Below, in pieces: positions 5,965 to 51,548 of a stretch of DNA of 64,000 bases (within the stretch, counting starts at the first letter, position 1; every line of letters starts with the position of its first letter). Source of the DNA: Candidatus Magasanikiibacteriota bacterium (lineage in GTDB: Bacteria; Patescibacteriota; Patescibacteriia; Magasanikbacterales; UBA922); contig DOMK01000010.1 of the NCBI GenBank assembly GCA_003510435.1, positions 41,487 through 105,486 on the forward strand, written 5' to 3'. The position numbers were made by a program, and so were the translations under genes. The notes under the pieces were generated by a model that saw only the letters and a program-made list of their open reading frames with translations, did not search any database and was not told the DNA's origin.

Positions 5965-6168
5965 TAAGCGATTGATGTGGCTACCAACCATATTCTGCCT
6001 CTCCGGCAGATCCTGTTCAAAGGACTAAGCTTATAAATCGAGTTAAACTTTCGGGTGGAACCGTCCTAATAAAACACAGATGACGCGGATTTCTATGCGA
6101 ATGACGCAGATAACGCGAATTGTGATATTATTGAGACCCCGATACTACTAGTTAGTGTTGGGGTTTTT
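5965..6168 (+). ncRNA. candidate small transcript (promoter-to-terminator unit without long ORF)
   Basis: TTGACA-N17-TACTAT at 5931-5959, internal hairpin TCTGCCTCTCCGGCAGA, three ATGACGC(G/A)GAT-like direct repeats, strong terminator hairpin plus T-run at 6133-6168. Confidence 0.25.
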
Positions 6169-6172
6169 TAAT

Positions 6173-6291
6173 ACACTGATTTCACTGATTTTGTGAGCCT
6201 GCCTGTGGGCAGGGATTTCACAGATTATAATAATCAGTGAAATCAATTTATAAATCAGTGCCTGCCTGCGCAGGCAGGTAATCAATGTTAT
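6173..6291. repeat. MITE-like repeat family A (TIR AACATTGATTACACTGATT), two units with GCCTGCC hairpins; ends at the GNAT start codon
   Basis: CACTGATTTCACTGATT .. AATCAGTGAAATCAAT .. AATCAATGTTAT-ATG; copies at 905-941, 13416-13504, 24317-24384, 33034-33085, 39037-39152. Confidence 0.7.
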
Positions 6292-7387: not shown

Positions 7388-7489
7388 TTTTACATTTATA
7401 ATAAATAACACCCTCGAAAAGGGATCCACCCTTACGGGTATCTTCGACCTCACCGTCTCATCGGCGGGTTCGGGATTAAGTTAAAAAAT

Positions 7490-13415: not shown

Positions 13416-13504
13416 ACATTGATTCCATTGATTATTTACTGATTTCGCTGAGTATATCAATTACAATCTGTGTAATCTTTAGTAATCAGTGAAATCAATG
13501 TTAT
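13416..13504. repeat. family A MITE-like element abutting the miaA start
   Basis: GACATTGATTCCATTGATT ... AATCAGTGAAATCAATGTTAT inverted termini; miaB stop TAA lies inside the upstream TGTGGTATAAT -10. Confidence 0.7.
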
Positions 13505-14446
13505 ATGAGAGAAGAAACAAAAAAATTACAAAAATTAATTGTGGTAGTTGGTCCAACTGCTAGTGGCAAGACTAACTGGGCTTTGCGTTTGGCCAAGAAA
13601 TTTAATGGCGATATTATTTCCGCTGATTCAAGGCAAATCTATAAAAAAATGGATATTGGCACAGCCAAAGAGCCTGGTGAATGGCGAAGAAATGGTTTGC
13701 GCAAAACTTACTATATCGAAGATATTCCCCATCATCTAGTTGATTTTCTGGATCCAGGCAAAGCTTTTACAGTGGCAGAATTTAGAGACAAGGCAGTAAA
13801 GTATGTAAAAATGGCGCATGAAGATGGTAAAATGCCGTTGATGGTAGGTGGAACAGGTTTGTATGTTCATTCTTTGGTAGAAAATTTGCAAATTCCTCGC
13901 GTACCGCCAAATAAAAAATTACGTGATAGTTTAGAAGAAAAAAATAATGAAGAATTGATGACTTGGATTACTAGTCTTGACCCAAAGACTGCCGAAACAG
14001 TTGATCCTAATAATAAACGTAGATTAATCCGAGCGCTTGAAGTGTGTATTCTTAGTGGGGTGCCTTTTTCTGAACAACAAATTAAAGGTGATCCATTGTT
14101 TGATATTTTAGAAATTGGGATTGAAGTGGAAAGAGAAACACTTTATGAAAGAATTGATAATCGTGTCCAGAAAATGTTTGATCTTGGTTTGGTAAAAGAA
14201 GTAGAAATTTTATTAAAACAAAAATATTCATGGGAATTACCTTCCATGAGCGGAATTGGTTATCGTCAGTTTAAAGAATATTTTGAAAAGAAAATTTCTT
14301 TGGACGAAGTGAAAGAAAATCTTAAACACGATACCAGAAGATATGCCAAACGACAATTGACTTGGTTTAGGCGAGATGAAAAAATAAAGTGGTGCAAGGA
14401 ATATGAAGAAGCAGAAAAATTGGTAGAAGATTTTTTAAAAAAATAG
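13505..14446 (+). CDS. miaA: tRNA dimethylallyltransferase
   Basis: VVVGPTASGKT P-loop; DSRQIYKKMDIGTAKP motif. Confidence 0.9.
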   Translation: MREETKKLQKLIVVVGPTASGKTNWALRLAKKFNGDIISADSRQIYKKMDIGTAKEPGEWRRNGLRKTYYIEDIPHHLVDFLDPGKAFTVAEFRDKAVKYVKMAHEDGKMPLMVGGTGLYVHSLVENLQIPRVPPNKKLRDSLEEKNNEELMTWITSLDPKTAETVDPNNKRRLIRALEVCILSGVPFSEQQIKGDPLFDILEIGIEVERETLYERIDNRVQKMFDLGLVKEVEILLKQKYSWELPSMSGIGYRQFKEYFEKKISLDEVKENLKHDTRRYAKRQLTWFRRDEKIKWCKEYEEAEKLVEDFLKK

Positions 14447-14447
14447 T

Positions 14448-15143
14448 ATGGCTTTAGATTTAGGAAAAAATTTGCCAATCGCCTCATCAGCCGGATTGGG
14501 GAGTAAAATAAGCAAGACACCCAGTTTGTATTCTAGTAGTTCTGATAATTTAAAAAAGAATAATGCTAAAACTTCTGTATTTAGTAATAAAAGTGAGGCA
14601 GTAATATCAGTTAGTCGTTTAAACAATGCGTTGTCAGCTCCGACTAGTTCAATTAGTCGGGTAAATAATAATGATAGTAGACCCACTACTTCAGTCAATC
14701 GGATGGCAGTAGCCCAAGTTGAGGCAGAAGATGTTTATAGTCAAGAAGCGGATGATAGACGTTATAATTATGTAAGACGACTGATAAAAGCGCGACAAGA
14801 AAAAGCGGTGGAGAAGGTTGTAAAAGAAGGTGGTTCGGCTTATGATTTTAGCGTCCACACTGGTAAGGGTTTCCGTCTTCATGGCCGGCATGGTTTGATG
14901 AGAAAAATTTATAAGATGAAAAAAGAAAATCCTTTGGCTTATAAACATTGGGGTGATACAGAAAAGAAATATTTGGCTGATATGCTTAAGAAACATGTGG
15001 AGGGGGTATCACGGGGTACAAGCATTGGCTATGCCATGCGAAGAAGAATGAAATATCAGATTGACCAAGATCGAAAAAGTCACAAAATTAATATTTATGC
15101 AGCCAAGGATATGAAAAAGATTGTGGATGAATTGCCAGGTTAA
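14448..15143 (+). CDS. hypothetical Ser-rich protein
   Basis: 231 aa ORF directly following miaA. Confidence 0.4.
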   Translation: MALDLGKNLPIASSAGLGSKISKTPSLYSSSSDNLKKNNAKTSVFSNKSEAVISVSRLNNALSAPTSSISRVNNNDSRPTTSVNRMAVAQVEAEDVYSQEADDRRYNYVRRLIKARQEKAVEKVVKEGGSAYDFSVHTGKGFRLHGRHGLMRKIYKMKKENPLAYKHWGDTEKKYLADMLKKHVEGVSRGTSIGYAMRRRMKYQIDQDRKSHKINIYAAKDMKKIVDELPG

Positions 15144-15176
15144 ATTAAGGAATAAGGAGTAAGGAATAAAGAATAA

Positions 15177-15201
15177 AAAAGAACACTGGCGTGTTCTTTT
15201 T
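15177..15201. terminator. bidirectional rho-independent terminator
   Basis: AAGAACAC-tggc-GTGTTCTT hairpin flanked by A-run/T-run between convergent genes. Confidence 0.7.
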
Positions 15202-15225: not shown

Positions 15226-15993
15226 TTATTTTATTTTTTCTTGATACGCTTGCCAACCAGCTTCGCGATATTTTTTAGCTTCGGTCAAAGGATTTTCGGC
15301 TTCATAAATTCCTCTGCCAACGATAATTACATCAGAATTATTTTTTTTGATAACTTTTTCAGGGGTATTGTATTGTTGTCCTAGGGTATCACCACCTTGA
15401 GCTAATTGTACACCTGGTGTCATGTTTACAAAACATGGGTTATCTAATAATTTTTTCATGGTGATAAAACCAATCACAAAATCCTTATTTTCTTCGGCCA
15501 TTTTTAGTGTTTCCTCAGTATACGTACCTTTGGCTAACGTACCTTTGGAACTCATTTCTGCCAAGAGTAATAAGCCTCGGCCTTTGGGTAAACCAATTTC
15601 TTTTAATCCTTGAATAATCCCAGGCCCTGGCACAGTGTGGGCATTGGTAATATGAGACCAATCAGCAATATTATAAATACCATTTTGATATTGATACTTT
15701 ACGGTGTTACCAATATCGGCAAATTTTCTATCTTCAAAAATTAAGAAATTATGTTCTTCTGCTAGTCTTTGTAATTGGATAATTAAATCAGCATCAAAAT
15801 CTTCGATAATATCAATATGGGTTTTTAATACGCAAATTTCTGGACCAAGTTCTTCTGCAATTTTTAATAATTTTTCTTTGGTGACTACATCCGCAGCAAT
15901 GGCCAAATTTGTTTGTTTGGTCTCCATTATTTTAAAAAGCTTTTTGGCGGTGGGATTGGTGCAAAGGTCAGCGCGTTGTTGGTATGTGAACAT
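15226..15993 (-). CDS. pyrF: orotidine 5'-phosphate decarboxylase
   Basis: KTHID and [12 protein letters not shown] motifs. Confidence 0.8.
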
Positions 15994-16003
15994 AATATTT
16001 TGT

Positions 16004-16130
16004 TAATCCCGACCCCGATTCGCATCGGGGAGGGATCCCTTTTAGTGTTTCTAACAAGGGTATTAAAAATACATTTGTTAGTGTGTTGAAAAGGGATTCC
16101 TCGTCGCCCTTTGGGCTCACTCGGAATGAC
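16004..16130. repeat. palindromic repeat family B (ATTCCGAG..GAGGAATCCCTTTT .. AAAAGGGATCCCTC..GGTTCGGGATTA)
   Basis: ~130 nt long imperfect palindrome; full copies at 30265-30392, 31887-32016, 39701-39847; half copies at 7411-7470, 26812-26900, 5832-5873, 51353-51400. Confidence 0.7.
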
Positions 16131-16135: not shown

Positions 16136-16768
16136 TTAAACTTGCTTAGATTCAAGAAATTTTTTTCCGTGACCAATTTTGGTATTTATTGGTACATTGT
16201 TTTTGCAGAGAGGACACTCTTCAGCTGAATAATTGGGAATTGTCATTTCTGCTAGTGAAGAGAATGGAACGCCGTACATCTCTGTGTTTATGGTTTGTGG
16301 ATTTTTATTAACCATCACACTAGCCTGAACCACTTCGCCACCTGCTTCTTTTATGGCGTCGACTAATTTTTTTAATGATGACCCTGTTTGTGTAAGATCC
16401 TCAAGTGCCAAGACCTTTTTACCTCTTACGAGATTGTTGTAGTTGCGTCTGGTAAAAAAGGTCAATTTATCATCTTCTTTTTCAGCATAGACACCGAGAA
16501 TTTCTTTGCCTTTGATTTGAGAAAGATGGTAAGCTGTCCATTGAGATAATATTATACCACCCAAAGCCGGGCCAGCTACTACATCAATATCTAAATCTTT
16601 GTATTTCTCTGCAAAAAGTTTACAAACGGCCGATGTCTCTTCAGTGTGGGGGTAGAGAGCATCTTTGTTTACATAAGTATCAAAATGGCCACCAGAAGTT
16701 CCGACAAAATGATCATTATCCAACACAGCTCCAACTTTTTTTAAAATTTCCAAGATATTATTTTCCAT
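16136..16768 (-). CDS. pyrE: orotate phosphoribosyltransferase (type I PRTase) with C-terminal CxxC
   Basis: PRPP-binding motif VLALEDLTQTGSS; position in pyr cluster. Confidence 0.7.
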   Translation of the reverse strand: MENNILEILKKVGAVLDNDHFVGTSGGHFDTYVNKDALYPHTEETSAVCKLFAEKYKDLDIDVVAGPALGGIILSQWTAYHLSQIKGKEILGVYAEKEDDKLTFFTRRNYNNLVRGKKVLALEDLTQTGSSLKKLVDAIKEAGGEVVQASVMVNKNPQTINTEMYGVPFSSLAEMTIPNYSAEECPLCKNNVPINTKIGHGKKFLESKQV

Positions 16769-17719: not shown

Positions 17720-18628
17720 TTATAAATGAGCAGATCCTCTAATTTCATCTAAATTTTTGATTCCTTCTTCTTTCATAATCACTTCCATTTCATCAGTAAT
17801 TTTTTTGAAAGCGTCAGCACCACGGAAATAGACAGCTGAACCAACACCGAGTAGGGTAGCACCGGCCATAATCATCGCGAGAGCATCTTCGCCAGTCGTG
17901 ATTCCTCCTGTGCCGATAATCGGAATTTTAACTGACTTGTAAATATCATAAACGCATTTAAGGGCAATGGGAAATAAAGCTGGACCAGAGACACCGCCTT
18001 GTTTATTATGAAGAATTGGCCGGCGCGCACGGACATCAATCATCATACCACTAACAGTGTTTACAGCCGTAATAGCATCGGCTCCGCTAGCTTCGGCTGC
18101 CTTGGCAATGGTATCAATATTCCAAGCATTGGGTGAAAGTTTTATAGAAATTGGTACGGTAGATTTCTCTTTTACCGCTTTGGTAATTTTTTCTACCGCT
18201 GAAATGGAATAAGCAAAGGGATCGCCGAATTCTTTACTAACATTGGGACAAGAAATATCAATTTCCAAAAAATCAATTGGCGCTTCACAAATCCGCTCGG
18301 CCATTTCGCCGAATTCTTCTGGTGTACCAGCAAAAATGCTCCCTAAAAGAGGAACATCAGATAATTCTTTAAATTTCTTTAATTCTTCAATGGCTTTATC
18401 AATTCCAGGATTAGATAGTCCGACAGCATTGATAAAAAAATGTTCATAGCCATTCATAGTTGGATTGGGGTGGCCAGTACGCGGTTCTTTGGAAATTGAT
18501 TTGACAGTCACGCCACCACAGCCATTTTTTATAGCATTATTAAGACTGGCACCAGTGACACCGAGAATGCCAGAGGCGACGACAATGGGGTTGGTGAATG
18601 ATTTGCCTAAAAAATTAGTTGTTAACAT
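17720..18628 (-). CDS. pyrD: dihydroorotate dehydrogenase catalytic subunit (class 1B)
   Basis: TIM-barrel DHOD motifs; adjacent to pyrK. Confidence 0.85.
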   Translation of the reverse strand: MLTTNFLGKSFTNPIVVASGILGVTGASLNNAIKNGCGGVTVKSISKEPRTGHPNPTMNGYEHFFINAVGLSNPGIDKAIEELKKFKELSDVPLLGSIFAGTPEEFGEMAERICEAPIDFLEIDISCPNVSKEFGDPFAYSISAVEKITKAVKEKSTVPISIKLSPNAWNIDTIAKAAEASGADAITAVNTVSGMMIDVRARRPILHNKQGGVSGPALFPIALKCVYDIYKSVKIPIIGTGGITTGEDALAMIMAGATLLGVGSAVYFRGADAFKKITDEMEVIMKEEGIKNLDEIRGSAHL

Positions 18629-18740
18629 AATTCCTAATTCACCTAATTTCTAATTCACCTAATAAAATTTCTAATACCCAATTAGTAATTTGATATTGGG
18701 ATTTTTATTAGAAATTAGGTGAATTAGATAATTAGAAATT
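18629..18740. repeat. palindromic repeat family C (CTAATTCACCTAATTTCTAAT) directly 5' of pyrD
   Basis: Inverted copies of TAATTCACCTAATTTCTAAT around an AT-rich centre; second copy at 30878-30986, directly 5' of folA. Confidence 0.65.
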
Positions 18741-20615: not shown

Positions 20616-21796
20616 AAAATAATTACTCTTTGATTTAAAATAGTGGCGATGGGCCAGCCGCGGAGTGATAATCCAACAAATGGACTCCAACCGCATTTAG
20701 TTTTTAAATTTTCATTGGTTACTTCTTTTTCTAGATCCAGATCAATTATAACCAAGTCGTTTGTCTCAGGAATGTTAAAGATTTTTTGGATGTTGAAATG
20801 CGTTAATTCAGTAATTTTTTCTAAGGTAATTTTACCGTTTTTAAACTCATTTAGCAAGAGGGGTAAAGTAGTTTCTAATCCTGGTACGCCTGATGGGGAA
20901 TTGGGATATGGCTTAGCTTTTTCTTCTAGGGTATGTGGGGCATGGTCTGTTCCAATAGTATCAATTGTACCGTCTAAAATGGCTTGCCAGAGGGCTTTTT
21001 GATCGTTTTTGGTACGAAGGGGCGGATTCATCTGCCCCAGGGTCCCTAGGTGATTATAATCATCTTCTGATAGAAATAAATGGTGAGGGGTGACTTCAGC
21101 ATAGATCTTAATACTCTCTAATTTGGCTTGTTTAATCAATTCAATTTCTTCTTTAGTACTGACATGACAGATATAGAGTTTGGTGTTGTATTTTTGAGCA
21201 AGTTTGATGGCTTGAGAAACGGCTGTAATAGCAGCATCTCGTGAGCGTATTTTCGAATGATCTTTTACATTGTTACATTGTCCCATTGTTACATTGTTGT
21301 TTTTAATGACAGCTTCGCTCTCTGCATGTACTGCCACAATCAAATTTAACTCTGCACAGGTTTTAAAAATATTTTCTTGATCTTCAATTTTATCAACTAA
21401 TAAATCACCAGTACTGGCACCCATGAAAAGTTTTACACCAATAATTTCGTTTTTACATTTGGCAAATTCAGTATAATTATTTGGCGTTGCTCCAAGATAT
21501 AAATAATAATTCAAAGGAATATTTATTTCGTCCAATTGTTTATCAATTATTTTTTTCTTGTGCTCAAGTGCTAAGGTGCTTATAGTGCTTGGTGAGTTAT
21601 TAGGCATGTCAAATACTGTAGTGTAACCACCTGCCATGGCAGCTTGCGCACCAGTCTGCCAATTTTCTTTGTGTTCAGATCCTGGAGTACGAAAGTGAAC
21701 GTGAGGATCAATTAAGGCTGGTAATGCTAAGAGATTGCCTTTGATTTCGGGTAAGTCTAATTCAAGAGTCTGATTGTTCCAGGTTTTGATTAACAT
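20612..21796 (-). CDS. pyrC: dihydroorotase
   Basis: DPHVHFR metal-binding motif, amidohydrolase fold. Confidence 0.8.
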   Translation of the reverse strand: MLIKTWNNQTLELDLPEIKGNLLALPALIDPHVHFRTPGSEHKENWQTGAQAAMAGGYTTVFDMPNNSPSTISTLALEHKKKIIDKQLDEINIPLNYYLYLGATPNNYTEFAKCKNEIIGVKLFMGASTGDLLVDKIEDQENIFKTCAELNLIVAVHAESEAVIKNNNVTMGQCNNVKDHSKIRSRDAAITAVSQAIKLAQKYNTKLYICHVSTKEEIELIKQAKLESIKIYAEVTPHHLFLSEDDYNHLGTLGQMNPPLRTKNDQKALWQAILDGTIDTIGTDHAPHTLEEKAKPYPNSPSGVPGLETTLPLLLNEFKNGKITLEKITELTHFNIQKIFNIPETNDLVIIDLDLEKEVTNENLKTKCGWSPFVGLSLRGWPIATILNQRVIIL

Positions 21797-21869
21797 TTTT
21801 CACATATCACGTATCACATATCACGTATCACAGTTGTTATGTGTTACGTGTTTTATGTTACGTGAAAAA
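21797..21869. repeat. palindromic repeat family D (ATCACGTATCACAT) directly 5' of pyrC
   Basis: TCACGTATCACATATCACGTATCAC // GTGTTACGTGTTTTATGTTACGTGA; related copy at 55606-55690, directly 5' of prfA. Confidence 0.6.
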
Positions 21870-22814
21870 TTAATTTGTAATTCGCGTTCCTGATTTACCT
21901 TCTAGTGCACTAGCAAGTTTATTCGGTGAAGTAATGATGGCTTCTTTCCCACCGTTTTCTAAAAAATTAATTACCGCCTGAATTTTTGGTAACATAGAAC
22001 CTTTGGCAAAATGATTTTGTTCAATGTACTTTTTTAATTCCTGAATATTTATTTTTTCTAATTTTTTCTGATCTGGTTTGCCAAAATTTATATAAACATT
22101 ATCCACGGCGGTGGCAATGACAAGAGTGTCGGCTTTTATTTGATTGGCAAGAAGGGCAGAAGCAAAATCTTTATCAATTACTGCTTCGACACCTTTTAAT
22201 TTTCCTCTTTCCTCTACAACTGGAATACCACCGCCACCGCAAGCAATAACAATGGTATTATTTTTTATTAATTCTTGCACAATATCTTTTTCAATTACAT
22301 CAATTGGTTTGGGAGAAGCCACAACTCGACGCCAGCCTCGACCAGCGTCTTCTTCTACTGCCCAGCCATATTTTTTGTACAAAGTTTTGGCTTGAGCTTT
22401 GGTATAAAAAGAGCCAATCGGTTTGGTTGGGTTGTTAAAAGCAGGATCATTTTTGTCCACCAAAACCTGGGTGACAACAGTCACGGCTTTTTTGTTCAAT
22501 TTTTTCTTGGTAATAATATTATCCAAGCTTTGTTGAAGATAAAAACCAATTGCACCTTGAGTTTCTGCATCAGCCGTGTCCAAAGGCACACGATGTAATT
22601 TTAATTGATTAAAACCCAATTCAGATCTTTGCATAATAAAACCAACCTGTGGTCCGTTGCCATGGGTAATAACAATTTCTAAATTTTTGCTGAATAGTGG
22701 AAGCAAAGCTTCGCAAGTTTTTTTTACTTGGAAATATTGGTCTTTTTCGGTTTGGTGTTCTTTATCTTTGATAAGAGCATTACCACCAACAGCGATGACG
22801 ATTCTTTTTGACAT
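21870..22814 (-). CDS. arcC: carbamate kinase
   Basis: N-terminal IVIAVGGNAL, amino-acid kinase fold, ~314 aa. Confidence 0.8.
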   Translation of the reverse strand: MSKRIVIAVGGNALIKDKEHQTEKDQYFQVKKTCEALLPLFSKNLEIVITHGNGPQVGFIMQRSELGFNQLKLHRVPLDTADAETQGAIGFYLQQSLDNIITKKKLNKKAVTVVTQVLVDKNDPAFNNPTKPIGSFYTKAQAKTLYKKYGWAVEEDAGRGWRRVVASPKPIDVIEKDIVQELIKNNTIVIACGGGGIPVVEERGKLKGVEAVIDKDFASALLANQIKADTLVIATAVDNVYINFGKPDQKKLEKINIQELKKYIEQNHFAKGSMLPKIQAVINFLENGGKEAIITSPNKLASALEGKSGTRITN

Positions 22815-26895: not shown

Positions 26896-28518
26896 TTAAG
26901 AAAGTTTTTCTCTCAACAATTCTTCCGCCACTTTTGGATCAGCACTACCCTCAGAAGCTTTCATGACCATACCTTTGAGAAACTGTAAAACTGGTTCTTT
27001 GCCAGCTTTGTATTGGGCAACTTGCGCTGGATAGCTTTTGATAATCTCGTCAATAATTTCACCAAGTTTTCCCGTGTCACTCACTTGACCCCAGCCTTTT
27101 TCTTCCATAATATGAGTTGGGTCTTTATCCACATCAGAGCCAGCCATAATTAATAATATTTTATTAGCATTGGTAGAATTGACGCGGTCGTTGTAAATCA
27201 GAGCAATCAGTTCGGCAAAGTTTTCGGCACTAAATTTGACCTCGGAAATATCCAGATTTTTTTCTTTCAAGATTCCCATGAGTTTACTCGTAATCCAACC
27301 ACCAGCCAAACGAGCGACTTTTTGGGGAATATTTTCCGCTTTGTTTTTGCTCTCTGGCACAGAGTCTAGCCACTCAGTCAATTCGCTCATAACTTCTTCG
27401 GTAAATGTTGCCCAAGCTTTATCTTCACTTAGTAATTTGGCATCGTTATAAGAAAAATTATATTCTGCAAAAAATCTTTGCCGTTTACTCTGAGGTAATT
27501 CTGGTAAATGAATGGCACCAGCGATTTTCAAAGGATGAAATGGAGGAATATCGGGATCTGGAAAATAACGATAATCAGCGGCGTTTTCTTTTATCCGTTG
27601 TAAAACAGTTTCTTGTTTATTCTCATCCCAACCACGAGTTTGCTGAGGCCAGGGTTCATTTTTTTCTAATAATTCTGTCTGCCGTTTGATTTCAAATTCA
27701 ATGGCTTTTTCTACGGCTTTGAAAGAGTTAATATTTTTTACTTCCACTTTATTATTTAGTTTATAATCTCCCAGTGGTTTGACCACACCATCTACAATTT
27801 CAAATTTACCCGCTTCTTGCACTGATACATTGGCTTCACAGCGCATGTGGCCTTTTTCCATATCCGCATCACTCACTTCTAGAGCGCGCATAATACTACG
27901 CAATTCCTGACAATAAGTTTTGGCTTCTAAAGCAGATTTGAAATCTGGATCTGTCACAATTTCCACCAGGGGTGTACCACCACGATTAAAATCTACAAGG
28001 GTGTTTCCACCATTCTGAGGAGCCGTAGGTGACGAAGAATCTCGTTGTTTTTTGTGCGAACTAAGGGATCCTTCGACTCCCTCTGGTCGCTCAGGATTGG
28101 TGTCATGTAATAACTTAGCAGTGTCTTCTTCCAAATGGGCGCGAGTAATACCAATTTTGGCTTCGTCGCGAATATTATCTCCCAAAGGGAAAGTTAAAGT
28201 TAGACTGCCATGCTCGGCAATTGGTTCATCATATTGAGAAATCTGATAACCCTTTGGTAAATCTGGATAAAAGTAATGTTTGCGATCAAATTTGGAATAT
28301 TCGCGAATCGTACAACCAAGAGCTTTGCCAATTAAAACTGTCCAGACAATGGCTTTCTTGTTTGGTACTGGCAGAGTGCCAGGGTGGGCGAGGCAGATAG
28401 GACAGATATTAGTGTTTGGTTCAGCCAAATCAGGATCGTTTTTACACGAACAAAACATTTTGGACTTGGTTTTTAGTTCTACATGGACTTCCATGCCGAT
28501 TATTGGTGTATATTGCAT
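26896..28518 (-). CDS. gatB: Asp/Glu-tRNA amidotransferase subunit B
   Basis: N-terminal MEVHVELKTKSKMFCSC; GatB/YqeY C-terminal domain. Confidence 0.9.
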   Translation of the reverse strand: MQYTPIIGMEVHVELKTKSKMFCSCKNDPDLAEPNTNICPICLAHPGTLPVPNKKAIVWTVLIGKALGCTIREYSKFDRKHYFYPDLPKGYQISQYDEPIAEHGSLTLTFPLGDNIRDEAKIGITRAHLEEDTAKLLHDTNPERPEGVEGSLSSHKKQRDSSSPTAPQNGGNTLVDFNRGGTPLVEIVTDPDFKSALEAKTYCQELRSIMRALEVSDADMEKGHMRCEANVSVQEAGKFEIVDGVVKPLGDYKLNNKVEVKNINSFKAVEKAIEFEIKRQTELLEKNEPWPQQTRGWDENKQETVLQRIKENAADYRYFPDPDIPPFHPLKIAGAIHLPELPQSKRQRFFAEYNFSYNDAKLLSEDKAWATFTEEVMSELTEWLDSVPESKNKAENIPQKVARLAGGWITSKLMGILKEKNLDISEVKFSAENFAELIALIYNDRVNSTNANKILLIMAGSDVDKDPTHIMEEKGWGQVSDTGKLGEIIDEIIKSYPAQVAQYKAGKEPVLQFLKGMVMKASEGSADPKVAEELLREKLS

Positions 28519-28696
28519 AGTATTAATAGAAAATAAACAATAATTTGATAAAAGTTAAAATTTTTTCCTTACTCCTGACACCAATAACCAAGATTTAATA
28601 CTCACAGGGTCAGGTTATTGGAGTTTGGGGTTCGGAATCACAGGGATATTCTAGCATTTAATAGGGGATTTGAAAAGACTAATTTTAGAACAAAAA

Positions 28697-28728
28697 ATCC
28701 ACCTCTTCGGCGGATTTAGTTTTGTAAT
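28697..28728 (-). terminator. rho-independent terminator
   Basis: AATCCGCCGAAGAGGTGGATT hairpin followed by T-run on the minus strand. Confidence 0.55.
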
Positions 28729-29578: not shown

Positions 29579-30259
29579 TTAGGTGGTTAGGTGTTGCTTC
29601 ACTTCACTCCAAATTATATCATGAATAGTATTTGGGGGCAATATTTTATCCTCTTTTATACATTCAATAAGTTTGAATTCATGATAGAGATTGGCAATTT
29701 GCAAATAAGCTTTTTCCGCGTCTTTCAAATGATTAATATCATCTTCGTGAATGTCACGTTTTTTTCCATGCAAATATTCACGATCGCCTTTTTTATCTAC
29801 CAATTGCTGGGAAATTTCTGGCGTGACATGTAAAATAAGATTTACATCTGGCTTAGGAATGCCAAGAATATTATATTCTAGATTATAATTCCAATCATAA
29901 TATTTTTTTCTCTCTTCATCGTCAGTAATTTTTCCACCTTGGTGGCCCATGTTGGAGGCGACATAGCGATTGGCAATCACAATTTTACCTTCATCTAGCC
30001 AAGCACGAATTTTTTTACTAGCCGAAAAACGATCCACGGCATAAAGAATTGAGGCGCGATAAGGTCCGACTTCATGGGCTGAGCCAAAACCGCCGTTTAA
30101 ATATTCTTCTACCAGAGAAGCACTGGGTTCGCCATATTGAGGAAAGCTAATTTGTTCAACTTGTTTACCCTCATTTTTTAAATGCTGAAGCAGAAGTTCG
30201 GTTTGCAAACTTTTTCCCGAGCCGTCTGTGCCTTCGAGCATTATAAATAGTCCTTTCAT
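29579..30259 (-). CDS. tmk: thymidylate kinase
   Basis: P-loop LEGTDGSGKS, DRF-like motif. Confidence 0.85.
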   Translation of the reverse strand: MKGLFIMLEGTDGSGKSLQTELLLQHLKNEGKQVEQISFPQYGEPSASLVEEYLNGGFGSAHEVGPYRASILYAVDRFSASKKIRAWLDEGKIVIANRYVASNMGHQGGKITDDEERKKYYDWNYNLEYNILGIPKPDVNLILHVTPEISQQLVDKKGDREYLHGKKRDIHEDDINHLKDAEKAYLQIANLYHEFKLIECIKEDKILPPNTIHDIIWSEVKQHLTT

Positions 30260-30367
30260 AGTGTCCGTAATTCCGAGCGTAGCGAGGAATCCCTTTCTAA
30301 CGCACGGAAAGTTGTTATAAATAAAATTAATTTCAATGCAAAGTTTAATGCATTAAAAAGGGATCCC

Positions 30368-30859
30368 TCACCCTGTGGGGTTCGGGATTACGCGAAGATA
30401 TTTAACAAACGTAAACCCTTCGTGTTCTTCTCTCCACACCTCTTGCCAAATTGCTGGGTTGATTTCCGGAAAAAAAGTATCACCATCGACTTCCATATCT
30501 ACATGAGTAATGTACAGAGTATCTACACGGTCAATGGTTTGTTTATAAATACTAGCGCCACCACAGACAAATGCGTCTTCATCTTTTAATTCATTAAAAG
30601 CTTTGTCCAAATCAGTATAGATTCTTACTCCTTCTGGTGCTTTAAAATTTGGATCTTTGGTCAGAACCACGGTTTTTCTACCTGGCAATGGTTTTCCCAA
30701 ATATCCTATGATTGATTCAAATGTAGTTTGTCCCATTAAACAAGTTTTTCCTAGAGTAGTGGTTTTGAAATACTGAAAATCTTCCGGTATATTCCACGGA
30801 ATTTTGTTCTTAATACCTATACAGTTATTTTTAGCAACGGCAGCAATTAAACTAAACAT
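30368..30859 (-). CDS. folA: dihydrofolate reductase
   Basis: N-terminal IAAVAKNNCIGIKNKIPWNIPEDFQYFK. Confidence 0.8.
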   Translation of the reverse strand: MFSLIAAVAKNNCIGIKNKIPWNIPEDFQYFKTTTLGKTCLMGQTTFESIIGYLGKPLPGRKTVVLTKDPNFKAPEGVRIYTDLDKAFNELKDEDAFVCGGASIYKQTIDRVDTLYITHVDMEVDGDTFFPEINPAIWQEVWREEHEGFTFVKYLRVIPNPTG

Positions 30860-31003
30860 AAAATTTTAAAATAATTGTTCAATTTCTAATTTTTAATTCA
30901 CCTAATTTCTAATAAAATGTCCAAATTGTTTATTTGGTATTGGAAATTTTTTAGGTGAATTAGTCATTAGGTCAATTAGAAATTTGCAATTTTTTGAAAT
31001 AAA

Positions 31004-31888
31004 TTAAATCGCTATTGAGAATTTGATACTAGGGTAACTCTGATAATTAACTAGTTGGGTGTCTCCTGCTTGCCAATCAAAAATTGATTTAAAATTATCA
31101 GTAGCAATTTGAGGTAATGGATAAATGTTCGGATCACGTGTTAGTTGTTCTTTTATTCCTTCCATATGATTAGAATAAATATGAGTATCACCCAAGAAAC
31201 CAACTAAGCGTCCTTCTTTATAACCAGTTTCTTTGCATAGTAAATGTAATAGTAGAGCATAACTAGAAATATTAAAGGGAAGTCCAAGAGCTACATCAAC
31301 AGAGCGTTGATTCCACATCAGGTTTAATTTGTCACCAGTAATCGTAATTTGAAAATTGTAATGACAAGGTGGTAGAGCCATTTCTTGGAGTTTGCTCGGA
31401 TTCCAGGCCATGACGAGCATGCGTCTGTCAGTTGGATTAGTTTTTAAGGTTTCAACTAACTTTTTTAATTGGTCTACACCTTGTCCGATATAATCAGTTT
31501 GGTAATCAATATAATCAGCTCCAAAATGTCGCCATTGAAAACCATAAATTGGCCCTAGGTCGCGTTCTTCAGCCATTTTCTTTTTGGTGTTTTCATCATG
31601 AGCATAAGGAACTTTGAGCGGTGAACACCATTCATCCCAAATATGACAGTTCCGGTCTTTGAGCCATTGCTTATCAGTAATGCCCTTGATAAAGAATTCC
31701 AATTCTGTGGCCATAACTTTGAAAGGCATTTTTTTGGTTGTAAGTAGAGGAAAGCCTTTACTCATGTCGTGTTCAAACATTACTCCTGCCACACTCAAAA
31801 TACCTGTGCCTGTGCGGTCAGCTTTTTCTACGCCGTTTTCTAAGATGTGTTTTATGATGTTGAGGTATGATTGCATAATTCGATTCAT
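31004..31888 (-). CDS. thyA: thymidylate synthase
   Basis: LPPCH active-site motif; 294 aa. Confidence 0.9.
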   Translation of the reverse strand: MNRIMQSYLNIIKHILENGVEKADRTGTGILSVAGVMFEHDMSKGFPLLTTKKMPFKVMATELEFFIKGITDKQWLKDRNCHIWDEWCSPLKVPYAHDENTKKKMAEERDLGPIYGFQWRHFGADYIDYQTDYIGQGVDQLKKLVETLKTNPTDRRMLVMAWNPSKLQEMALPPCHYNFQITITGDKLNLMWNQRSVDVALGLPFNISSYALLLHLLCKETGYKEGRLVGFLGDTHIYSNHMEGIKEQLTRDPNIYPLPQIATDNFKSIFDWQAGDTQLVNYQSYPSIKFSIAI

Positions 31889-32021
31889 TCCGAGCGAAGT
31901 CGATTCGCATCGACTGACGAGGAATCTTTTTTAAAATAAATTTTTTTAATCGAAATTTTATTGTATTAAAAAATATGTGGTAAAAAAGATCCTTCACCCC
32001 TACGGGGTTCAGGATGAATTA

Positions 32022-32453
32022 TTAAAATTCCCCTGTACTTCCATGTTGTCCAGTACCACGAGAGCTAGTATCATCCAACTCTACCACTTCTTCCAATTGA
32101 GCTATGGCCACAGGATAAATAATTAGTTGAGCAATTTTTTGTCCTTTTTTAATAATAGCAGTTTCTTGACTAAGATTTATTAATAATACATTGTATTCGC
32201 CACGAAAACCAGAATCAAACACTCCACCCATAGTGTGTAGACCATATTTCATAGGCGGACCGCCTTTATCTTTTACAATCGCAGCAAATCCTGGTTCAAA
32301 TTCTAAAGCAAATCCCAAAGCAAATAATTTTCTTTCGCCAGATTTAATTTCCGCATCTTCCAGAGAAAACAAATCTAAACCAGCGTCTTCACCTGGATGG
32401 CCATAGACTGGAAGTTTTGCTTCTGGATTTAATTTTTTAAATTTGACTCGCAT
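32022..32453 (-). CDS. dut: dUTP diphosphatase
   Basis: dUTPase motifs (GLDL, GVFDSGFRGE, C-terminal GSTG). Confidence 0.75.
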   Translation of the reverse strand: MRVKFKKLNPEAKLPVYGHPGEDAGLDLFSLEDAEIKSGERKLFALGFALEFEPGFAAIVKDKGGPPMKYGLHTMGGVFDSGFRGEYNVLLINLSQETAIIKKGQKIAQLIIYPVAIAQLEEVVELDDTSSRGTGQHGSTGEF

Positions 32454-32472: not shown

Positions 32473-33033
32473 TCAAACAGATTTGTATTTAGCAACTAAT
32501 CCATCTAATTGTTCATATAAGTCCTCTAAATTGCCATTATTATCAATATGTTCAGTGGCTTCTTTGACAATATCGTTAATTGTTAATTCTGTAGATCGTT
32601 GGTGATCAGCGAGAAATTGTTCAAAAGTTTTGTTATTATCATCGCTTTTTTCTCCGCGTTTAGTCAGTCGCTCATAACGGATTTTTGGATCAGCCGAGAT
32701 TTCTACCAAAACAAAACCAGGCAAATTTTTTAAATATTTCACATCATTAGGACGGCGGACATTGGAAATAGAAATAATTTGGTGGGTATCATTTTTTATA
32801 TCCTCGGCTAGAGTTTTTGACATAATGTCATCACCAAATTTCTCTCGAATTGATTCAGAAACTTTGACATAGTTATCCCGATTTAGTTCCAAATAAAATC
32901 TTTTTAAAATATCGGCTAACATAAAACTAAAGCTGTGGTTTTTACCACCGTATTTTTGTTCTAGGTAAGCCCCAGCCGTGTCTTTACCACTAGCCATTTG
33001 GCCAACGAAACCAAAGATGATTTTCATAAACAC
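32473..33033 (-). CDS. P-loop nucleotide/nucleoside kinase (dNMP kinase-like)
   Basis: Walker A GQMASGKDT; sits inside the thymidylate module. Confidence 0.5.
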   Translation of the reverse strand: MFMKIIFGFVGQMASGKDTAGAYLEQKYGGKNHSFSFMLADILKRFYLELNRDNYVKVSESIREKFGDDIMSKTLAEDIKNDTHQIISISNVRRPNDVKYLKNLPGFVLVEISADPKIRYERLTKRGEKSDDNNKTFEQFLADHQRSTELTINDIVKEATEHIDNNGNLEDLYEQLDGLVAKYKSV

Positions 33034-33077
33034 TGATTATACAGATTATTTGATGATTTCACAGATGATTAAAAGGA

Positions 33078-39036: not shown

Positions 39037-39152
39037 ATTAACATTGATTACACTGATTAAAATTGATTACACTGATTTTAGACAGAAGCGTTTGATTATT
39101 ATTGGTTTCAATCTGTGAAATCTTTAATAATCAGTCTAAATCAATGTTATAT
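39037..39152. repeat. family A MITE-like element between rplK start and nusG end
   Basis: AACATTGATTACACTGATT (x2, tandem) ... AATCAGTCTAAATCAATGTT terminal inverted repeats. Confidence 0.7.
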
Positions 39153-39692
39153 TTTCTTTATTTGTAAGGCATCCAATTCGACTGGGGTCTCACGGCCAAA
39201 CATACTAACCAAGACTTTTACTTTACCACGAGCTTCGTCAACATTACTGACCTTGCCCTCAAAGTTTTTGAATGGACCATCAGTAATTCTAACTGTTTCA
39301 TCAATTTCTACATCAATTTTGTGAGTTGGCTCATCTACACCCATACGTTTTTGTAAAGCATCCATTTCTTTTGGATCAATTGGGGTTGGGGTAGTACCAG
39401 AACCAATAAAACCAGTGACGTTTGGAGTATTTCTAACCACATACCAAGAATCATCAGTTACGATCATCTCTACTAATACATAGCCAGGAAAAACTTTTTC
39501 TTCAATTGTAGTTCGTTTGCTGTTTTTAATTTTAATCTTTTTTTCTTTTGGCACCAGGACATTAAAAATTTTGTCTTGCATGTCAAAAGATTCTATCCGT
39601 TGTTCTAGATTGTGTTTTACATTTTCTTCATAGCCACTATAAGTATGAAGTACATACCAACGGCGACCAAGTTGTAACGTTTGTTTAGCCAT
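39147..39692 (-). CDS. nusG: transcription termination/antitermination factor NusG
   Basis: NGN domain (WYVLHTYSGYE) plus KOW. Confidence 0.9.
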   Translation of the reverse strand: MAKQTLQLGRRWYVLHTYSGYEENVKHNLEQRIESFDMQDKIFNVLVPKEKKIKIKNSKRTTIEEKVFPGYVLVEMIVTDDSWYVVRNTPNVTGFIGSGTTPTPIDPKEMDALQKRMGVDEPTHKIDVEIDETVRITDGPFKNFEGKVSNVDEARGKVKVLVSMFGRETPVELDALQIKKI

Positions 39693-39853
39693 AGTTTTTT
39701 ATTCCGAGCGAATGCGAGGAATCCCTTTTTAATGCACAGAAATTTGCATTAAATTAGATTAATTTTAAGCATTTTTATATGCTTGAAAAGGGATCCCTCA
39801 CTCACCTTCGTCCGTCAGCTGACGGACTACGGCGGGTTCGGGATTAAGTTGAA

Positions 39854-40039
39854 TTACTTAATAAAAATTCCTAAACCAAGATTAAAGATGTAGTCTAGAA
39901 CACCAAAAAAAACTGCAATACCAATACTCATACCAACAACAATTAAGCTGTAGGTGGTAGTTTGCTTTTTGGTTGGCCAGACGACTTTTTTCATTTCTGA
40001 AATAGAACCTTTAAAATAGTCTTTGATTTTTTCTAACAT
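39854..40039 (-). CDS. secE: preprotein translocase subunit SecE
   Basis: 61 aa single-TM protein immediately upstream of nusG. Confidence 0.7.
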   Translation of the reverse strand: MLEKIKDYFKGSISEMKKVVWPTKKQTTTYSLIVVGMSIGIAVFFGVLDYIFNLGLGIFIK

Positions 40040-44368: not shown

Positions 44369-44541
44369 TTAAATCATAAATTAAAAATCATAAATCCTAA
44401 ATAAATTAAGATTTATTGTTTTCTAGTTTAATTATGGCAATATTATAGCACGATTTATTATATTCTTACAAGGGTAAAAGATGTGGATAAAATTTGGCTA
44501 AAATAAGCGAAATAATAAAGATTAATAAAAGTGGAAAATTC

Positions 44542-44570
44542 TTGACAAAAGCATTTTTTTGTGGTATAAT
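44542..44570 (+). promoter_or_regulatory. sigma70 promoter of GC-island gene b
   Basis: TTGACA-N17-TATAAT with TGN extended -10. Confidence 0.6.
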
Positions 44571-44636
44571 ACTCGGTCCTGAAAATGGGCAATTGTTACA
44601 GAATGGAACGAACCTTACAACTCATTGGAGGGCGCT

Positions 44637-46187
44637 ATGAACTGGTTGAAGAAAGAGATCAACCGTATGGTGAGCGAAGGCGGCTGGAGCATTGGCGCTC
44701 TGGTAGTCGCTCTGGTGGCGTTCGCTGCCACCGTATTGTGCACCTCGCTCGTGGCAGGTGTGCAGATCGCTCGGGCCGTAGCCTATCTTGGCGGGCCCTT
44801 GCTCGTTCTCGCCTTTATGGCGGTGTACGTTGCCTTTAGGAAACTGCCTTGGAAAAAGGCTGTTCTCCTGCTGGTGTTGTACATCGCCGGACCTGTCGGC
44901 ACTCTGCTCGTGGCAGGTGCTGAGTTGGCAGAGATTGTGTCTCTGCTGACCCTGGGCACGGTCGTCGTCGTGGGGATCTTCCTCATGAGGAAACAACATC
45001 CTGTGATCGCCAAGGTCGTACTGTTTGGAACGGCGTGGGCGGTTGTAATGTGGAACGTCCCGCCGGAATATGAGGGCTGGGCTTGGTGGGTCACTCAGAT
45101 CCTCCTGGTCATCGTGGCTCACGGGTTGGCTCGGGCTTTCCTGTTGCCCTGGCTGGTCAAGTGGATTGAGATGGGTATCACCTGGTTCTTCGGAACCGAC
45201 AAGATGCTCAAGACTCGTCCGTATCTTCGGACGGTCCTCGATCTGATCCTACTCGCGATTGCTATCCTGTTTCTCAGCTGGGTCGTAGGGGGACGATTCC
45301 CCCAGGTCGCGACATGGATTGCTCGGGCTGCTCTAATTACCCTGGCCTATCCCATTAGGCTGGCATATAAGTGGGAGCCGGCGATCACTCGGCTCGTGGC
45401 TGGGTTTGCTGCCATCCTGGTCGCTACGTCGTATCTCGTGGACGACTCGTGGGCCACGAACCCAGTTGAGTCTTTGGTCATGGCCTTTGCGCTTTTCCTG
45501 TTCTGGTTGGAAGTGGTAAAACCGCGCCTCAAGGTGTGGGAGTACTACTCCCGGAACAACTGGGAGAAGCCTCTCTTGGTGGCTGGGATTATCATGGTGG
45601 TCGGCTGTGGAGTCAACTACATGGTAATTCATCTCTGGAACAACATGTGGTTCACCCAGGAGAATGGGTGGAGAATCCCAGAGTTGTTCTGGAAGGCCCC
45701 CGAGGTCGTAGAGATGATAGGGGAAAAGAAAGTGATGATCGTCCCGATGGGTTGGCTTAGAGCCACGCGGGTCGTCCCTATGCTCATCCTTGGCCTGGCT
45801 GTGGGTCTGGCCAACCACGGCAAACTTCCAAAGTACAAGAAAGAAGAGCGCACTGGCCTCGCGTTCTTCATCGGTCTTGGTTTGGGGGTGGCGTTCTTGC
45901 TACTCTTGAAGACCGAGATTCAACTCTCCGTTCTCCTTGGAGCGGGGTTGTTCATAGGTTTCGGCTTAGCTCTCATCGTGGGGCCGTGGCGGTGGCTCGT
46001 CTGCGTGGCCTGTTCTTGGGCCATGACAGTGGGGATGCTTTCGTCCCCGGCCTATGCCGTTCGCGCTTTGCTGTGGGCTCTGCTAACGGCTGGCATGTCG
46101 GCCTGGGCTGCCGCTTTTGTTCGGCTGATCTGGGAGAAATCCTGGGAAATGGCCGGCAAAACCAAGGCTAAGAAAAAAGGCCACTAA
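44637..46187 (+). CDS. polytopic membrane protein (~14 TM) in GC-rich island
   Basis: High GC3 codon usage; GGAGGG SD 4 nt before ATG; Trp/Leu-rich TM helices; no family recognised. Confidence 0.55.
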   Translation: MNWLKKEINRMVSEGGWSIGALVVALVAFAATVLCTSLVAGVQIARAVAYLGGPLLVLAFMAVYVAFRKLPWKKAVLLLVLYIAGPVGTLLVAGAELAEIVSLLTLGTVVVVGIFLMRKQHPVIAKVVLFGTAWAVVMWNVPPEYEGWAWWVTQILLVIVAHGLARAFLLPWLVKWIEMGITWFFGTDKMLKTRPYLRTVLDLILLAIAILFLSWVVGGRFPQVATWIARAALITLAYPIRLAYKWEPAITRLVAGFAAILVATSYLVDDSWATNPVESLVMAFALFLFWLEVVKPRLKVWEYYSRNNWEKPLLVAGIIMVVGCGVNYMVIHLWNNMWFTQENGWRIPELFWKAPEVVEMIGEKKVMIVPMGWLRATRVVPMLILGLAVGLANHGKLPKYKKEERTGLAFFIGLGLGVAFLLLLKTEIQLSVLLGAGLFIGFGLALIVGPWRWLVCVACSWAMTVGMLSSPAYAVRALLWALLTAGMSAWAAAFVRLIWEKSWEMAGKTKAKKKGH

Positions 46188-46444
46188 CCCGCTAGCCAGT
46201 CGGTAAACACTGGTCGGGTCTATGATTGGACCCTTTCGTCTCCAACCGGGAGGCGAGAAAAGAGCGCAAGCTCAGATTGATTTCGTTCCAGACAGTCAAA
46301 TGTCTGATGGACGATGAAGAAATGGCAGGCCGTTGGCTCGAAACCCAACGTACCTGCCCTCCGTTTACTTACTAAATATTATTTTGGTGGGTGAACAGAG
46401 AATATAACACGATACAAAATACACATAGCAAAATACAAGAACTT

Positions 46445-49875: not shown

Positions 49876-49917
49876 TATAAAGGAATAATGTAAAGGAATA
49901 AGGAGTAAGGAATAATA

Positions 49918-50230: not shown

Positions 50231-51379
50231 TTGGTGTATTATATGGCTATGAAAATTAATTTTAAAAATTTTATAAATAAAATTAAACCAGGTGAGCCAG
50301 GGTTTGTTTATGCTTTGGCTAGTTTGGTATTTGTGGTTGGTTTGTCTTTAATAATTTTTTTTGGTTATCAATATTTTTCTCATAAAAATTTTGGTACAGC
50401 GATTATTAATCTAGATAATCAAACCACTACTTCTACTCCGGCCAATTGTAATTATAGAAGAATTCTGGATGGGGTGTGTGTGGCCATGCAAACTGATATT
50501 AATCCAAAATTAGTCGCGGTAATGATAGAAAATCATTCGGAAGCTCGACCTCAGTCTGGTTTGGTGGATGCGAGTATTGTTTATGAAGCGCCAGTCGAAG
50601 CTAACTATACTAGATTTTTGGCAATTTATCCGGCAGACATGATCGTGAAAAAGATTGGACCAGTCCGCAGTGCTCGGCCATATTATCTAGATTGGCTAGG
50701 GGAATATGGTACACCAATGTATATGCATGTAGGTGGTTCGCCAGAGGCTTTGGATATTATAAAAGCGAGAAATATTTTTGATCTAAATGAATTTTATCGT
50801 GGGTGGTATTATTGGCGGAGTGAAGATAGAAGTGCTCCACACAATGCTTATACTTCAAATGAATTGTGGGGGAAAGCCGTTGGAGTTTATGGCGAAGAAA
50901 ATTATTTGAATGACATATATGGTGGATGGAAATTTGGGACTACAATAGAACAACAGAACAACAGAACAACACAAGATTTGGTTGAAGAAATCACAGTGTC
51001 GTTTTTGCCACCAGTGTATGAAGCAGTGTGGAAATATAGTAGTACCACTAATCAGTACGAAAGATATCAGATGAACAAACCCCATGTGGACCAAGATGGT
51101 CGGCAGATCGTGGCAGATAATGTGATTGTCCAAAAAGTTCAAGCCAAAGTGTTGGATGAAATTGGTCGGCAAGAAATTACAACTGTGGGAAAAGGTGATT
51201 TGTTAGTCTTTAAAAATGGTGAAGTAATAACTGGTTATTGGCAAAAAAATAGTTCTAGTTCACGGACAAAGTTTTTTGATAATAATGGTGAAGAAATAAA
51301 ATTAAATTCTGGGAAGATTTGGGTGGAGGTGGTGAGTCAGATGAATTCACTGTCATTCCGAACGAACGATAGTGAGTGA
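50231..51379 (+). CDS. DUF3048-like (YerB-type) membrane-anchored protein
   Basis: N-terminal TM; ARPQSGLVDASIVYEAPVEANYTRFLAIY resembles the DUF3048 core. Confidence 0.45.
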   Translation: MVYYMAMKINFKNFINKIKPGEPGFVYALASLVFVVGLSLIIFFGYQYFSHKNFGTAIINLDNQTTTSTPANCNYRRILDGVCVAMQTDINPKLVAVMIENHSEARPQSGLVDASIVYEAPVEANYTRFLAIYPADMIVKKIGPVRSARPYYLDWLGEYGTPMYMHVGGSPEALDIIKARNIFDLNEFYRGWYYWRSEDRSAPHNAYTSNELWGKAVGVYGEENYLNDIYGGWKFGTTIEQQNNRTTQDLVEEITVSFLPPVYEAVWKYSSTTNQYERYQMNKPHVDQDGRQIVADNVIVQKVQAKVLDEIGRQEITTVGKGDLLVFKNGEVITGYWQKNSSSSRTKFFDNNGEEIKLNSGKIWVEVVSQMNSLSFRTNDSE

Positions 51380-51516
51380 GGAATCCCTTGTGTTAAAATA
51401 TAATTGTTGGTTTGAACATAAATTTGGACGGAAATTTAACAAAAATAAAACGAAAATTAAATTATTATAGTAAATAGAGATAAGATTGAGATAATTGGAG
51501 ATAAAAAACAACAAAT

Positions 51517-51548
51517 AAAAATCTGCCGAAGAGGCAGATTTTTATTTT
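51517..51548. terminator. bidirectional terminator
   Basis: ATCTGCC-gaaga-GGCAGAT hairpin flanked by A-run and T-run. Confidence 0.65.

Follow-up and report, generated by a model that had tools for sequence, protein, structure and literature searches.

A family of hairpin repeats was found in a 64,000-nt stretch of DNA (the whole of which is hereafter called the window) from a groundwater genome of Candidatus Magasanikbacteria, within the Patescibacteria or Candidate Phyla Radiation (CPR). These repeats are probably gene-less doublets of the hairpin family known as NTS in Neisseria and, more generally, as Ssn-related motifs (SRM), i.e. they have the architecture of a repeat-gene-repeat cassette minus the gene and would be non-autonomous derivatives. 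The elements belong to a repeat family that extends across phyla and is tied to the gene of a GIY-YIG nuclease (probably Ssn), and they act at the DNA level rather than being evolved terminators. In this compact genome they survive only where they are tolerated, namely in gaps between genes, at the 3' ends of open reading frames (ORFs) and at one position in GatB resembling a surface loop, and the changed gene termini that accompany them are by-products of insertion. The FolA encoded in the window is identical to NCBI protein DEB09_02855, and the region is present in five independent assemblies at 99.97-100% identity.

Each element consists of two inverted hairpin units pointing at each other across an AT-rich spacer. 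The sequence of a unit, on its hairpin strand, is (t)GTC-ATYCY-GA-(GC mini-hairpin)-GA-RGRAT-CCCTT(TT), with a base stem of 5 bp and with GA opposite GA as an internal loop between this stem and the distal mini-hairpin. The latter has the minimal form GCGNAGC, e.g. GCGTAGC at 30277-30283, and is frequently enlarged with extra hairpins; among DNA mini-hairpins, d(GCGNAGC) is a classic example of very high stability. The base stem covaries, being found in the window as ATTCC/GGAAT (left units), ATCCC/GGGAT (right units), and ATCCT/AGGAT or ATTCT/AGAAT (the right unit of the thyA/dut copy and both gatB units). Since such double changes preserve pairing within the unit and weaken that between the arms, the conserved structures are the local hairpins. 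A first-pass annotation of the window had described each element as one long imperfect palindrome; the inverted arms are indeed there, but the within-unit covariation is better described by two units than by a single palindrome. Aligning and folding the copies, as that annotation had proposed, showed that the elements fold far better than shuffled sequences on both strands, whether as DNA or RNA (z -3.6 to -9; for RNA -4.2 to -9.2), with close energies for a long-hairpin and a three-hairpin fold. Predicted structure is mostly lost in the gatB copy (z about -1). The units have a GC content of 48-65%, as compared to 36% for the whole window, and the spacers measure 59-72 nt with 13-32% GC in the four intergenic doublets, whose units reach 50-65%, and 27 nt with 44% GC in gatB. 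The spacers of the copies at 30266 (tmk/folA) and 39698 (nusG/secE) are homologous (z 9.2), which indicates that whole doublets have been copied.

The inventory comprises four full elements, two solo halves and a fifth, compact copy in frame within gatB (Table 1). The palindromes that the first-pass annotation had placed between pyrF/pyrE, tmk/folA, thyA/dut and nusG/secE were all recovered at, or within a few bases of, its coordinates, as were its half-copies before thrS and at the end of the DUF3048 gene; only the gatB copy had been overlooked. By Pfam, the neighboring genes encode OMP decarboxylase and a phosphoribosyltransferase (PRTase), thymidylate kinase and dihydrofolate reductase (DHFR), thymidylate synthase and dUTPase, NusG and SecE, and ThrRS. 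The intergenic doublets leave 5-12 nt to the neighboring genes on either side; in a relative, the gap between secE and nusG is 2 nt. A strict unit search of the window gave 12 matches, 11 of them inside the elements, as compared to about one, and at most three, in shuffles preserving mononucleotide content. These 11 element units span 21-52 nt. The twelfth match (17901-17926) has no CCCTT tail and looks like chance, and the degenerate half upstream of thrS, whose base-stem 3' half is short by one base, was missed by this search. Two motif searches, compared with shuffles preserving dinucleotides, gave 11 matches vs 2.4 expected and 17 vs 5.3, both above every shuffle. Two further units of the family lie outside the window, in the 8.2 kb to its left (L210, 5308-5339 and 7102-7123), where they lie on either side of rpsA, one towards a Lactamase_B_3 gene and the other towards ftsH. 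An Rfam scan of the window gave no family at the gathering threshold, and over the elements only chance-level matches. A possible decayed half unit (GGGGTTCGGAATCACA) was seen at 28600-28645, between gatB and the next gene.

The link to a nuclease comes from other genomes. By scanning one genome per species with the pattern AAAAGGGATYCCTC-N(6-36)-TCGGRAT we obtained at least 115 loci, and clustered the ORFs situated within 400 nt of the units (855 ORFs from the 115 loci listed). The sole recurrent real protein was a GIY-YIG protein of about 95 aa (PF01541), present at four loci from four lineages among the matches listed; the other recurrent ORFs were spurious, reading through the repeats. Complete unit-gene-unit cassettes, with the nuclease gene between two inward-facing units, were found in L068 and in the CPR genome L020, and the same unit type flanks the gene in L020, L068, L137, L172 and L204. 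In the reverse direction, a metagenome search starting from an alignment of the nuclease recovered strict units within 150 nt in 24 out of 80 loci, on both sides in 14, while chance would account for about 0.4 loci. Among the other nuclease loci inspected, the majority have variant hairpins that share the terminal GTCAT...ATGAC sequences. No NCBIfam model matches the unit-flanked nuclease. Our proteins were matched to PF01541, and the published Ssn domain is cd10448.

The published counterpart is the Neisseria NTS, CGTCATTCCCGCGMAVGCGGGAATCYRG, which contains dRS3 and has been generalised to the SRM that flank ssnA (cd10448; Chenal et al. 2025, PMC11893778). According to the same study, SsnA acts in vitro on single-stranded DNA, binding the folded hairpin of one strand and cutting just upstream of it, but not on double-stranded DNA or RNA; the NTS-ssnA-NTS layout was likened to an insertion sequence and compared with REP/BIME/RAYT. 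NTS were found to control transformation in Neisseria and to be rare inside genes, and Rickettsia was among the genomes with more than 300 SRM. Function outside Neisseria was left open, and the main text does not mention CPR bacteria. The window units resemble this class in being hairpin repeats of 20-50 nt with a stem of the ATTCC...GGAAT type and a CC tail (the GTCAT head being kept mainly by units of other genomes), in many copies per genome, and in that their type elsewhere, CPR included, flanks a single-domain GIY-YIG gene of about 95 aa on both sides. They differ in that the stem is broken by the GA/GA internal loop and the distal part often enlarged by hairpins, that the GTC head has mostly drifted, that the host is a CPR bacterium with no ssn gene in 72 kb, and that copies overlap ORF ends and in one case lie inside an ORF. 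Judging from unit homology and from the nuclease association in other genomes, the window units would thus belong to the SRM class, an assignment that shares the good, though not complete, confidence we place in the explanation as a whole. Literature searches for the literal repeat sequences returned cloning primers only, and those combining Patescibacteria with palindromic repeats nothing relevant.

The lineages and units described here are those among the matches listed in the genome scan. According to the record titles, the matches were distributed over about 49 CPR records (Magasanik-, Gracili-, Sacchari-, Peregrini- and Parcubacteria-type), about 23 Acidobacteriota and about 16 Gammaproteobacteria, together with a few Bacteroidota and others. 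The free Y/R stem positions are complementary in 119 out of 125 units and a 5' GTC is present in 99 of them; neither feature is demanded by the pattern, and the hits are therefore homologous. A minimal distal part of 7-8 nt (GCGNAGC-like) was found in 39 of the 125. The 234 units of these loci form 63 convergent pairs, as against 14 divergent and 11 tandem ones, and 81 units stand alone; where pairs are divergent, they are mainly those between adjacent doublets of arrays such as L116. This predominance makes the convergent doublet the normal form, usually with a spacer of 20-45 nt. Up to seven doublets with a period of about 160 nt occur in L116 (3728-4730; an Acidobacteriota metagenome-assembled genome), and also in L012 (7259-7680); these arrays resemble the NIME arrays of Neisseria, outside that genus.

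One copy lies within a gene, gatB. Apart from an exact in-frame insertion of 87 nt, which is the compact doublet, the encoded GatB is 96% identical to its orthologue. The insert adds 29 aa, TNPERPEGVEGSLSSHKKQRDSSSPTAPQ, to a protein whose orthologues are 511 and 513 aa long, and no duplication is evident at the junctions. In the closest relative, a syntenic stretch of 12.8 kb has no units, as compared to six in the window, while a sister assembly of this relative has a unit elsewhere. The elements are thus gained or lost on a short evolutionary time scale.

At gene termini, the repeats have become coding sequence. The first-pass annotation had proposed that the elements donate the last codons of folA and of the DUF3048 gene and have remodelled gene ends, and comparison with FolA and DUF3048 homologues bears this out. 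The folA gene ends ...KYLRVIPNPTG-stop, where the codons for I-P-N-P-T-G and the TGA lie within the right unit and that for V in its flank, so the unit supplies the last 7-8 codons and the stop. Among the best 120 FolA homologues, the majority are 156-158 aa long and end ...KY.K(K/I/N), which leaves the FolA of the window 5-6 residues longer; a (V/I)I(P/S)NP.G tail is found in three of the 120, namely the window type and two others. In L006, whose FolA is 72% identical, the same doublet is found at the same folA codon, while the nearest relative (FolA 87% identical) has no element and a different C-terminus. The tail was thus seen together with the repeat, and a repeat-free relative sharing it, the observation that would have spoken against donation, was not encountered in these two. 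The DUF3048 ORF runs into the solo unit and closes there with ...SLSFRTNDSE-stop; the first 25 nt of this unit give the tail (S)FRTNDSE-stop, just as previously read. DUF3048 homologues end ...S(V/L)SY-stop, and one that is 58% identical and has the same unit carries the tail ...(S/L)FRTNDSE-stop. At such 3' ends it is the unit's own GGTGAGGGAT or GAGTGAGGAAT that provides the stop codon. At thyA, on the other hand, the claim that the 31887 copy starts exactly at the ATG has to be corrected: the unit does create an upstream in-frame ATG (31888), but this belongs only to the longest ORF. The thyA orthologues and the JGI gene call start four codons later, at the ATG 31876 (MQSYL...) situated 12 nt further in, and the unit thus abuts the start rather than supplying it.

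The slot between folA and tmk is used by other elements too. Other relatives hold an unrelated PF05635 cassette there, the flanking word repeat of which likewise supplies the last folA codons, and the slot is therefore at least permissive. These cassettes, with genes for a four-helix-bundle protein (23S rRNA IVS / bAvd-like), were seen in L206 (1890-2340) and L008 (9150-9580), and occupy the same kind of intergenic slots as our elements, namely folA-tmk and pyrB-pyrI. They are bounded by inverted short word repeats (GTTCATAGTTC... and CAGCCAATAGTTCA...), and in L206 such a repeat supplies the folA tail RVHSS-stop. The idea that our units are the ends of PF05635 cassettes was ruled out, as the L008 and L206 cassettes are flanked by different word repeats.

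The conserved copies deserve separate mention. The DUF3048 unit is identical at 35 out of 35 positions in a genome whose neighboring coding DNA has an identity of only about 68%. The folA doublet, too, is found again at an unchanged codon in lineages that are not sisters. Constraint on the unit, repeated insertion of one copy into one slot, or recombination between lineages at these places may account for this. Past the DUF3048 unit, about 25 nt (51390-51416 in the window, 1335-1361 in L205) are also almost identical next to this less conserved coding DNA, with a conserved core TTAAAATATAATTGTTGGTTTGAA containing a TATAAT-like box.

As for the mechanism, Ssn is reported to recognise the folded repeat on single-stranded DNA (PMC11893778), and by analogy with IS200/IS605 and REPIN/RAYT the doublets may spread via single-strand nicks made by this enzyme. 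A stronger version of the gene-less doublet reading, which we put forward only tentatively, treats the doublets as non-autonomous transposable elements that would be mobilised in trans, via single-stranded hairpin intermediates, by a GIY-YIG nuclease of the Ssn type. If true, Ssn/SRM would constitute a genuine GIY-YIG-based class of bacterial transposons with MITE-like derivatives, active even in CPR genomes of about 1 Mb. It would further imply repeated homing into the same gene-end slots, creating new C-termini and stops, as well as in-frame insertions in essential genes. Insertion directed to particular sites would in that case explain why an identical copy recurs at the DUF3048 site and why lineages that are not sisters share the folA tail.

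Several observations weigh against the gene-less doublet explanation. Ssn is not known to transpose any member of the family. Neither the window nor the 8.2 kb to its left, i.e. 72 kb of this genome, contains a GIY-YIG gene, and among the CPR hits of a protein search for Ssn-like sequences (Parcubacteria, Uhrbacteria) none is named Magasanikbacteria. The published SRM string, HGTCWYN(0-2)YYVSBRHN(0-5)WNVSBRGN(0-2)RNCYNB, has no matches in the window, although a canonical NTS used as control does match. This string is an operational search string and not a biological definition, and the window units are missed because the GA/GA loop breaks it. The GTC flank is present in only two of the 11 strict element units (16127 and 51355), the others having GTA, TTA, TTC, TTT etc. 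No target-site duplication was found at any copy and no clean empty site except at gatB; for the intergenic copies, the spacers of relatives hold unrelated repeats instead of empty sites. Lastly, units at orthologous sites show more conservation than the coding DNA next to them, an observation no less compatible with a maintained function than with a selfish repeat.

Domestication of the same repeats is an alternative: the host would keep them as sites where proteins bind single-stranded DNA, limiting or directing recombination of incoming DNA around core genes in the way proposed for NTS in Neisseria, and they would not be mobile at present. The perfectly kept DUF3048 unit, together with the almost identical nucleotides following it, and the folA unit at its unchanged codon in the lineage with 72% FolA identity would suit such a role, as would the transformation control exerted by NTS in Neisseria and the fact that units bracket genes of nucleotide metabolism and translation. 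We nevertheless regard domestication as unlikely: over the same 12.8 kb, all six units are missing from the closest relative; most of the predicted structure of the gatB copy is gone, as expected for a decaying insertion; and the folA-tmk slot, filled in other relatives by an unrelated cassette, gives the impression of being permissive, not functional. It is even less probable that the enzyme behind the doublets is of another kind, i.e. that they are REPIN/MITE-type elements driven by a Y1 transposase of the RAYT/IS200 type or by a DDE transposase, with the GIY-YIG association being incidental; to this we give very little credence. While the doublet architecture matches that of REPINs (PMC3116915), and the gatB junction lacks a duplication, as in insertions of the IS200/IS605 type, the 855 ORFs clustered from the surroundings of the units (400 nt) include no recurrent transposase, a GTAG head is lacking, and the units are recovered when the search starts from the nuclease. 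An identity as REP/RAYT was rejected, with no Y1 transposase near the units at the 115 loci listed.

The first-pass annotation had regarded the elements as intercistronic terminators or RNA processing hairpins. More broadly put, they would be selected as terminators between cistrons, as targets of RNases or as hairpins stabilising mRNA, and would set how strongly neighboring genes of an operon are expressed relative to one another. Several points speak for such a function: strong RNA structure is predicted on both strands, every full copy fills a gap between two co-oriented genes, either transcribed strand meets a hairpin and then CCCUUUU, solo units are in weak excess co-oriented behind gene 3' ends (19 vs 10), orthologous copies are conserved, and REP elements are known to stabilise upstream mRNA. 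A consensus terminator scan, however, calls no copy, and the T-run begins 3 nt past the stem, after CCC, and is not part of the family consensus outside AT-rich genomes. Both orientations occur (the copy at 16003 vs the others), and one copy lies within the ORF of gatB, an essential gene in which a terminator would be lethal. Moreover, the unpaired 5' GTC is kept across phyla, the linked nuclease is reported not to touch RNA, exceptions to stem pairing show no G-U strand bias (2 vs 4), and the nearest relative runs the same operon without the elements. The missing terminator calls, the CCC offset, the in-frame gatB copy and the link to a nuclease thus leave the earlier proposal unsupported, and selection at the RNA level is in our judgment improbable, slightly more so than domestication; a secondary effect of the elements on mRNA is possible. 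Two near-identical terminator-like hairpins, each followed by a T-run, are found elsewhere in the window in opposite orientation (28690-28716 and 51519-51546; ATCCACCTCTTCGGCGGAT and ATCTGCCGAAGAGGCAGAT) and look like the real terminators of their gene clusters.

Compared with other repeat systems, the gene-less doublets resemble in layout the NIMEs (dRS3-RS-dRS3), in which inverted hairpin repeats surround a spacer of 19-214 bp (also given as about 20-200) with lower GC, and which were described as Neisseria-specific (PMC1797815). Similarly, the window spacers are 27-72 nt long and AT-richer than the units in the four intergenic doublets, but the window doublets are isolated between housekeeping genes, whereas NIMEs form arrays beside genes for variable surface proteins. 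With REP/BIME/REPIN they share the imperfect intergenic palindromes, the occurrence as inverted doublets and singlets and the proposed mobilisation as single-stranded hairpins; the sequences are unrelated, however, and the gene of the window family is a GIY-YIG nuclease instead of a Y1 (HUH) transposase. Rickettsia palindromic elements (RPE), compared by description only, likewise insert in frame and add a peptide with the ORF left intact, as in gatB, but the copies in the window are mostly situated between genes or at the ends of ORFs. Like intrinsic (Rho-independent) terminators, the elements have a GC-rich hairpin and a nearby T-run after genes. In terminators the T-run is expected within 0-2 nt, while that of the window elements is offset by CCC, copies lie within operons, and the family keeps its sequence, not just its shape, across phyla.

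The Ssn/hairpin-repeat system was described only in 2025 and from reference genomes. What is added here is a sequence variant that the published string misses, common in CPR and several other phyla, that consists mainly of gene-less inverted doublets and turns over between close relatives. The repeats can become coding, having provided C-termini and stops for DHFR and the DUF3048 protein and a 29-aa insert in GatB. Together, the window units and the nuclease of the L020 cassette offer concrete substrates and a CPR enzyme for the question of mobilisation by Ssn. Annotators should also be aware that, in such genomes, these repeats give rise to unusual protein C-termini and to ORFs labelled 'hypothetical'.

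Table 1. Positions in the window of the hairpin doublets, their units, the solo units and the folA tail, with neighboring genes.
Feature	Position	Strand	Details	Genes
Full doublet, tmk/folA	30266-30392		CGTA/TACG flanks	tmk 29579-30259 (-), folA 30368-30859 (-)
Left unit of tmk/folA doublet	30270-30290	+ (hairpin strand)
Spacer of tmk/folA doublet	30291-30362		29% GC
Right unit of tmk/folA doublet	30363-30388	- (hairpin strand)
folA tail, V-I-P-N-P-T-G and TGA	30368-30391	-	read from right unit and its flank	folA
Full doublet, thyA/dut	31884-32018			thyA 31004-31876/31888 (-), dut 32022-32453 (-)
Left unit of thyA/dut doublet	31887-31925		additional inner hairpin GTCGATTCGCATCGAC
Right unit of thyA/dut doublet	31989-32015		covarying stem ATCCT/AGGAT
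Full doublet, nusG/secE	39698-39847		fills gap between the genes	nusG 39147-39692 (-), secE 39854-40039 (-)
Left unit of nusG/secE doublet	39701-39722
Right unit of nusG/secE doublet	39793-39844
Full doublet, pyrF/pyrE	16003-16130		opposite orientation	pyrF 15226-15993 (-), pyrE-like PRTase 16136-16768 (-)
Unit of pyrF/pyrE doublet	16006-16036	+
Unit of pyrF/pyrE doublet	16096-16127	-
Compact doublet, gatB	28015-28101		units 28012-40 and 28068-97, 27-nt spacer	gatB 26896-28518 (-)
Solo right-type unit	7417-7479	-		between GNAT gene and thrS 7490-9268 (+)
Solo left-type unit	51355-51389	+		3' end of DUF3048 gene 50231-51379 (+)

Besides the hairpin units, a distinct class of intergenic repeats was noted, made up of short words in tandem, in both orientations, that are shared by distant sites of the window. 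The words include AATCAGTG words, TAAGGAG words, CACGTATCACATATCAC and TTCACCTAAT words. A first group of sites comprises 904-948, 6160-6254, 13462-13506, 33021-33065 and 39039-39080, a second 15141-15177, 49887-49915, 52319-52347 and 62435-62469, a third 21781-21872 and 55605-55652, and a fourth 18612-18726 and 30894-31007. Beside word repeats, the perfect GC palindrome CCTGCCTGCGCAGGCAGG occurs three times (6261-6278, 52349-52366 and about 62418-62435). Furthermore, two GC-rich islands of possibly foreign DNA, with about 46-60% GC as compared to 36% for the genome, are found at 960-1700 and 44400-46200. The only ORF of the former is on the minus strand and has no Pfam match, nor does the island match any Rfam family, while the latter encodes a W/A/L-rich multi-pass membrane protein of 520 aa, also with no Pfam match.

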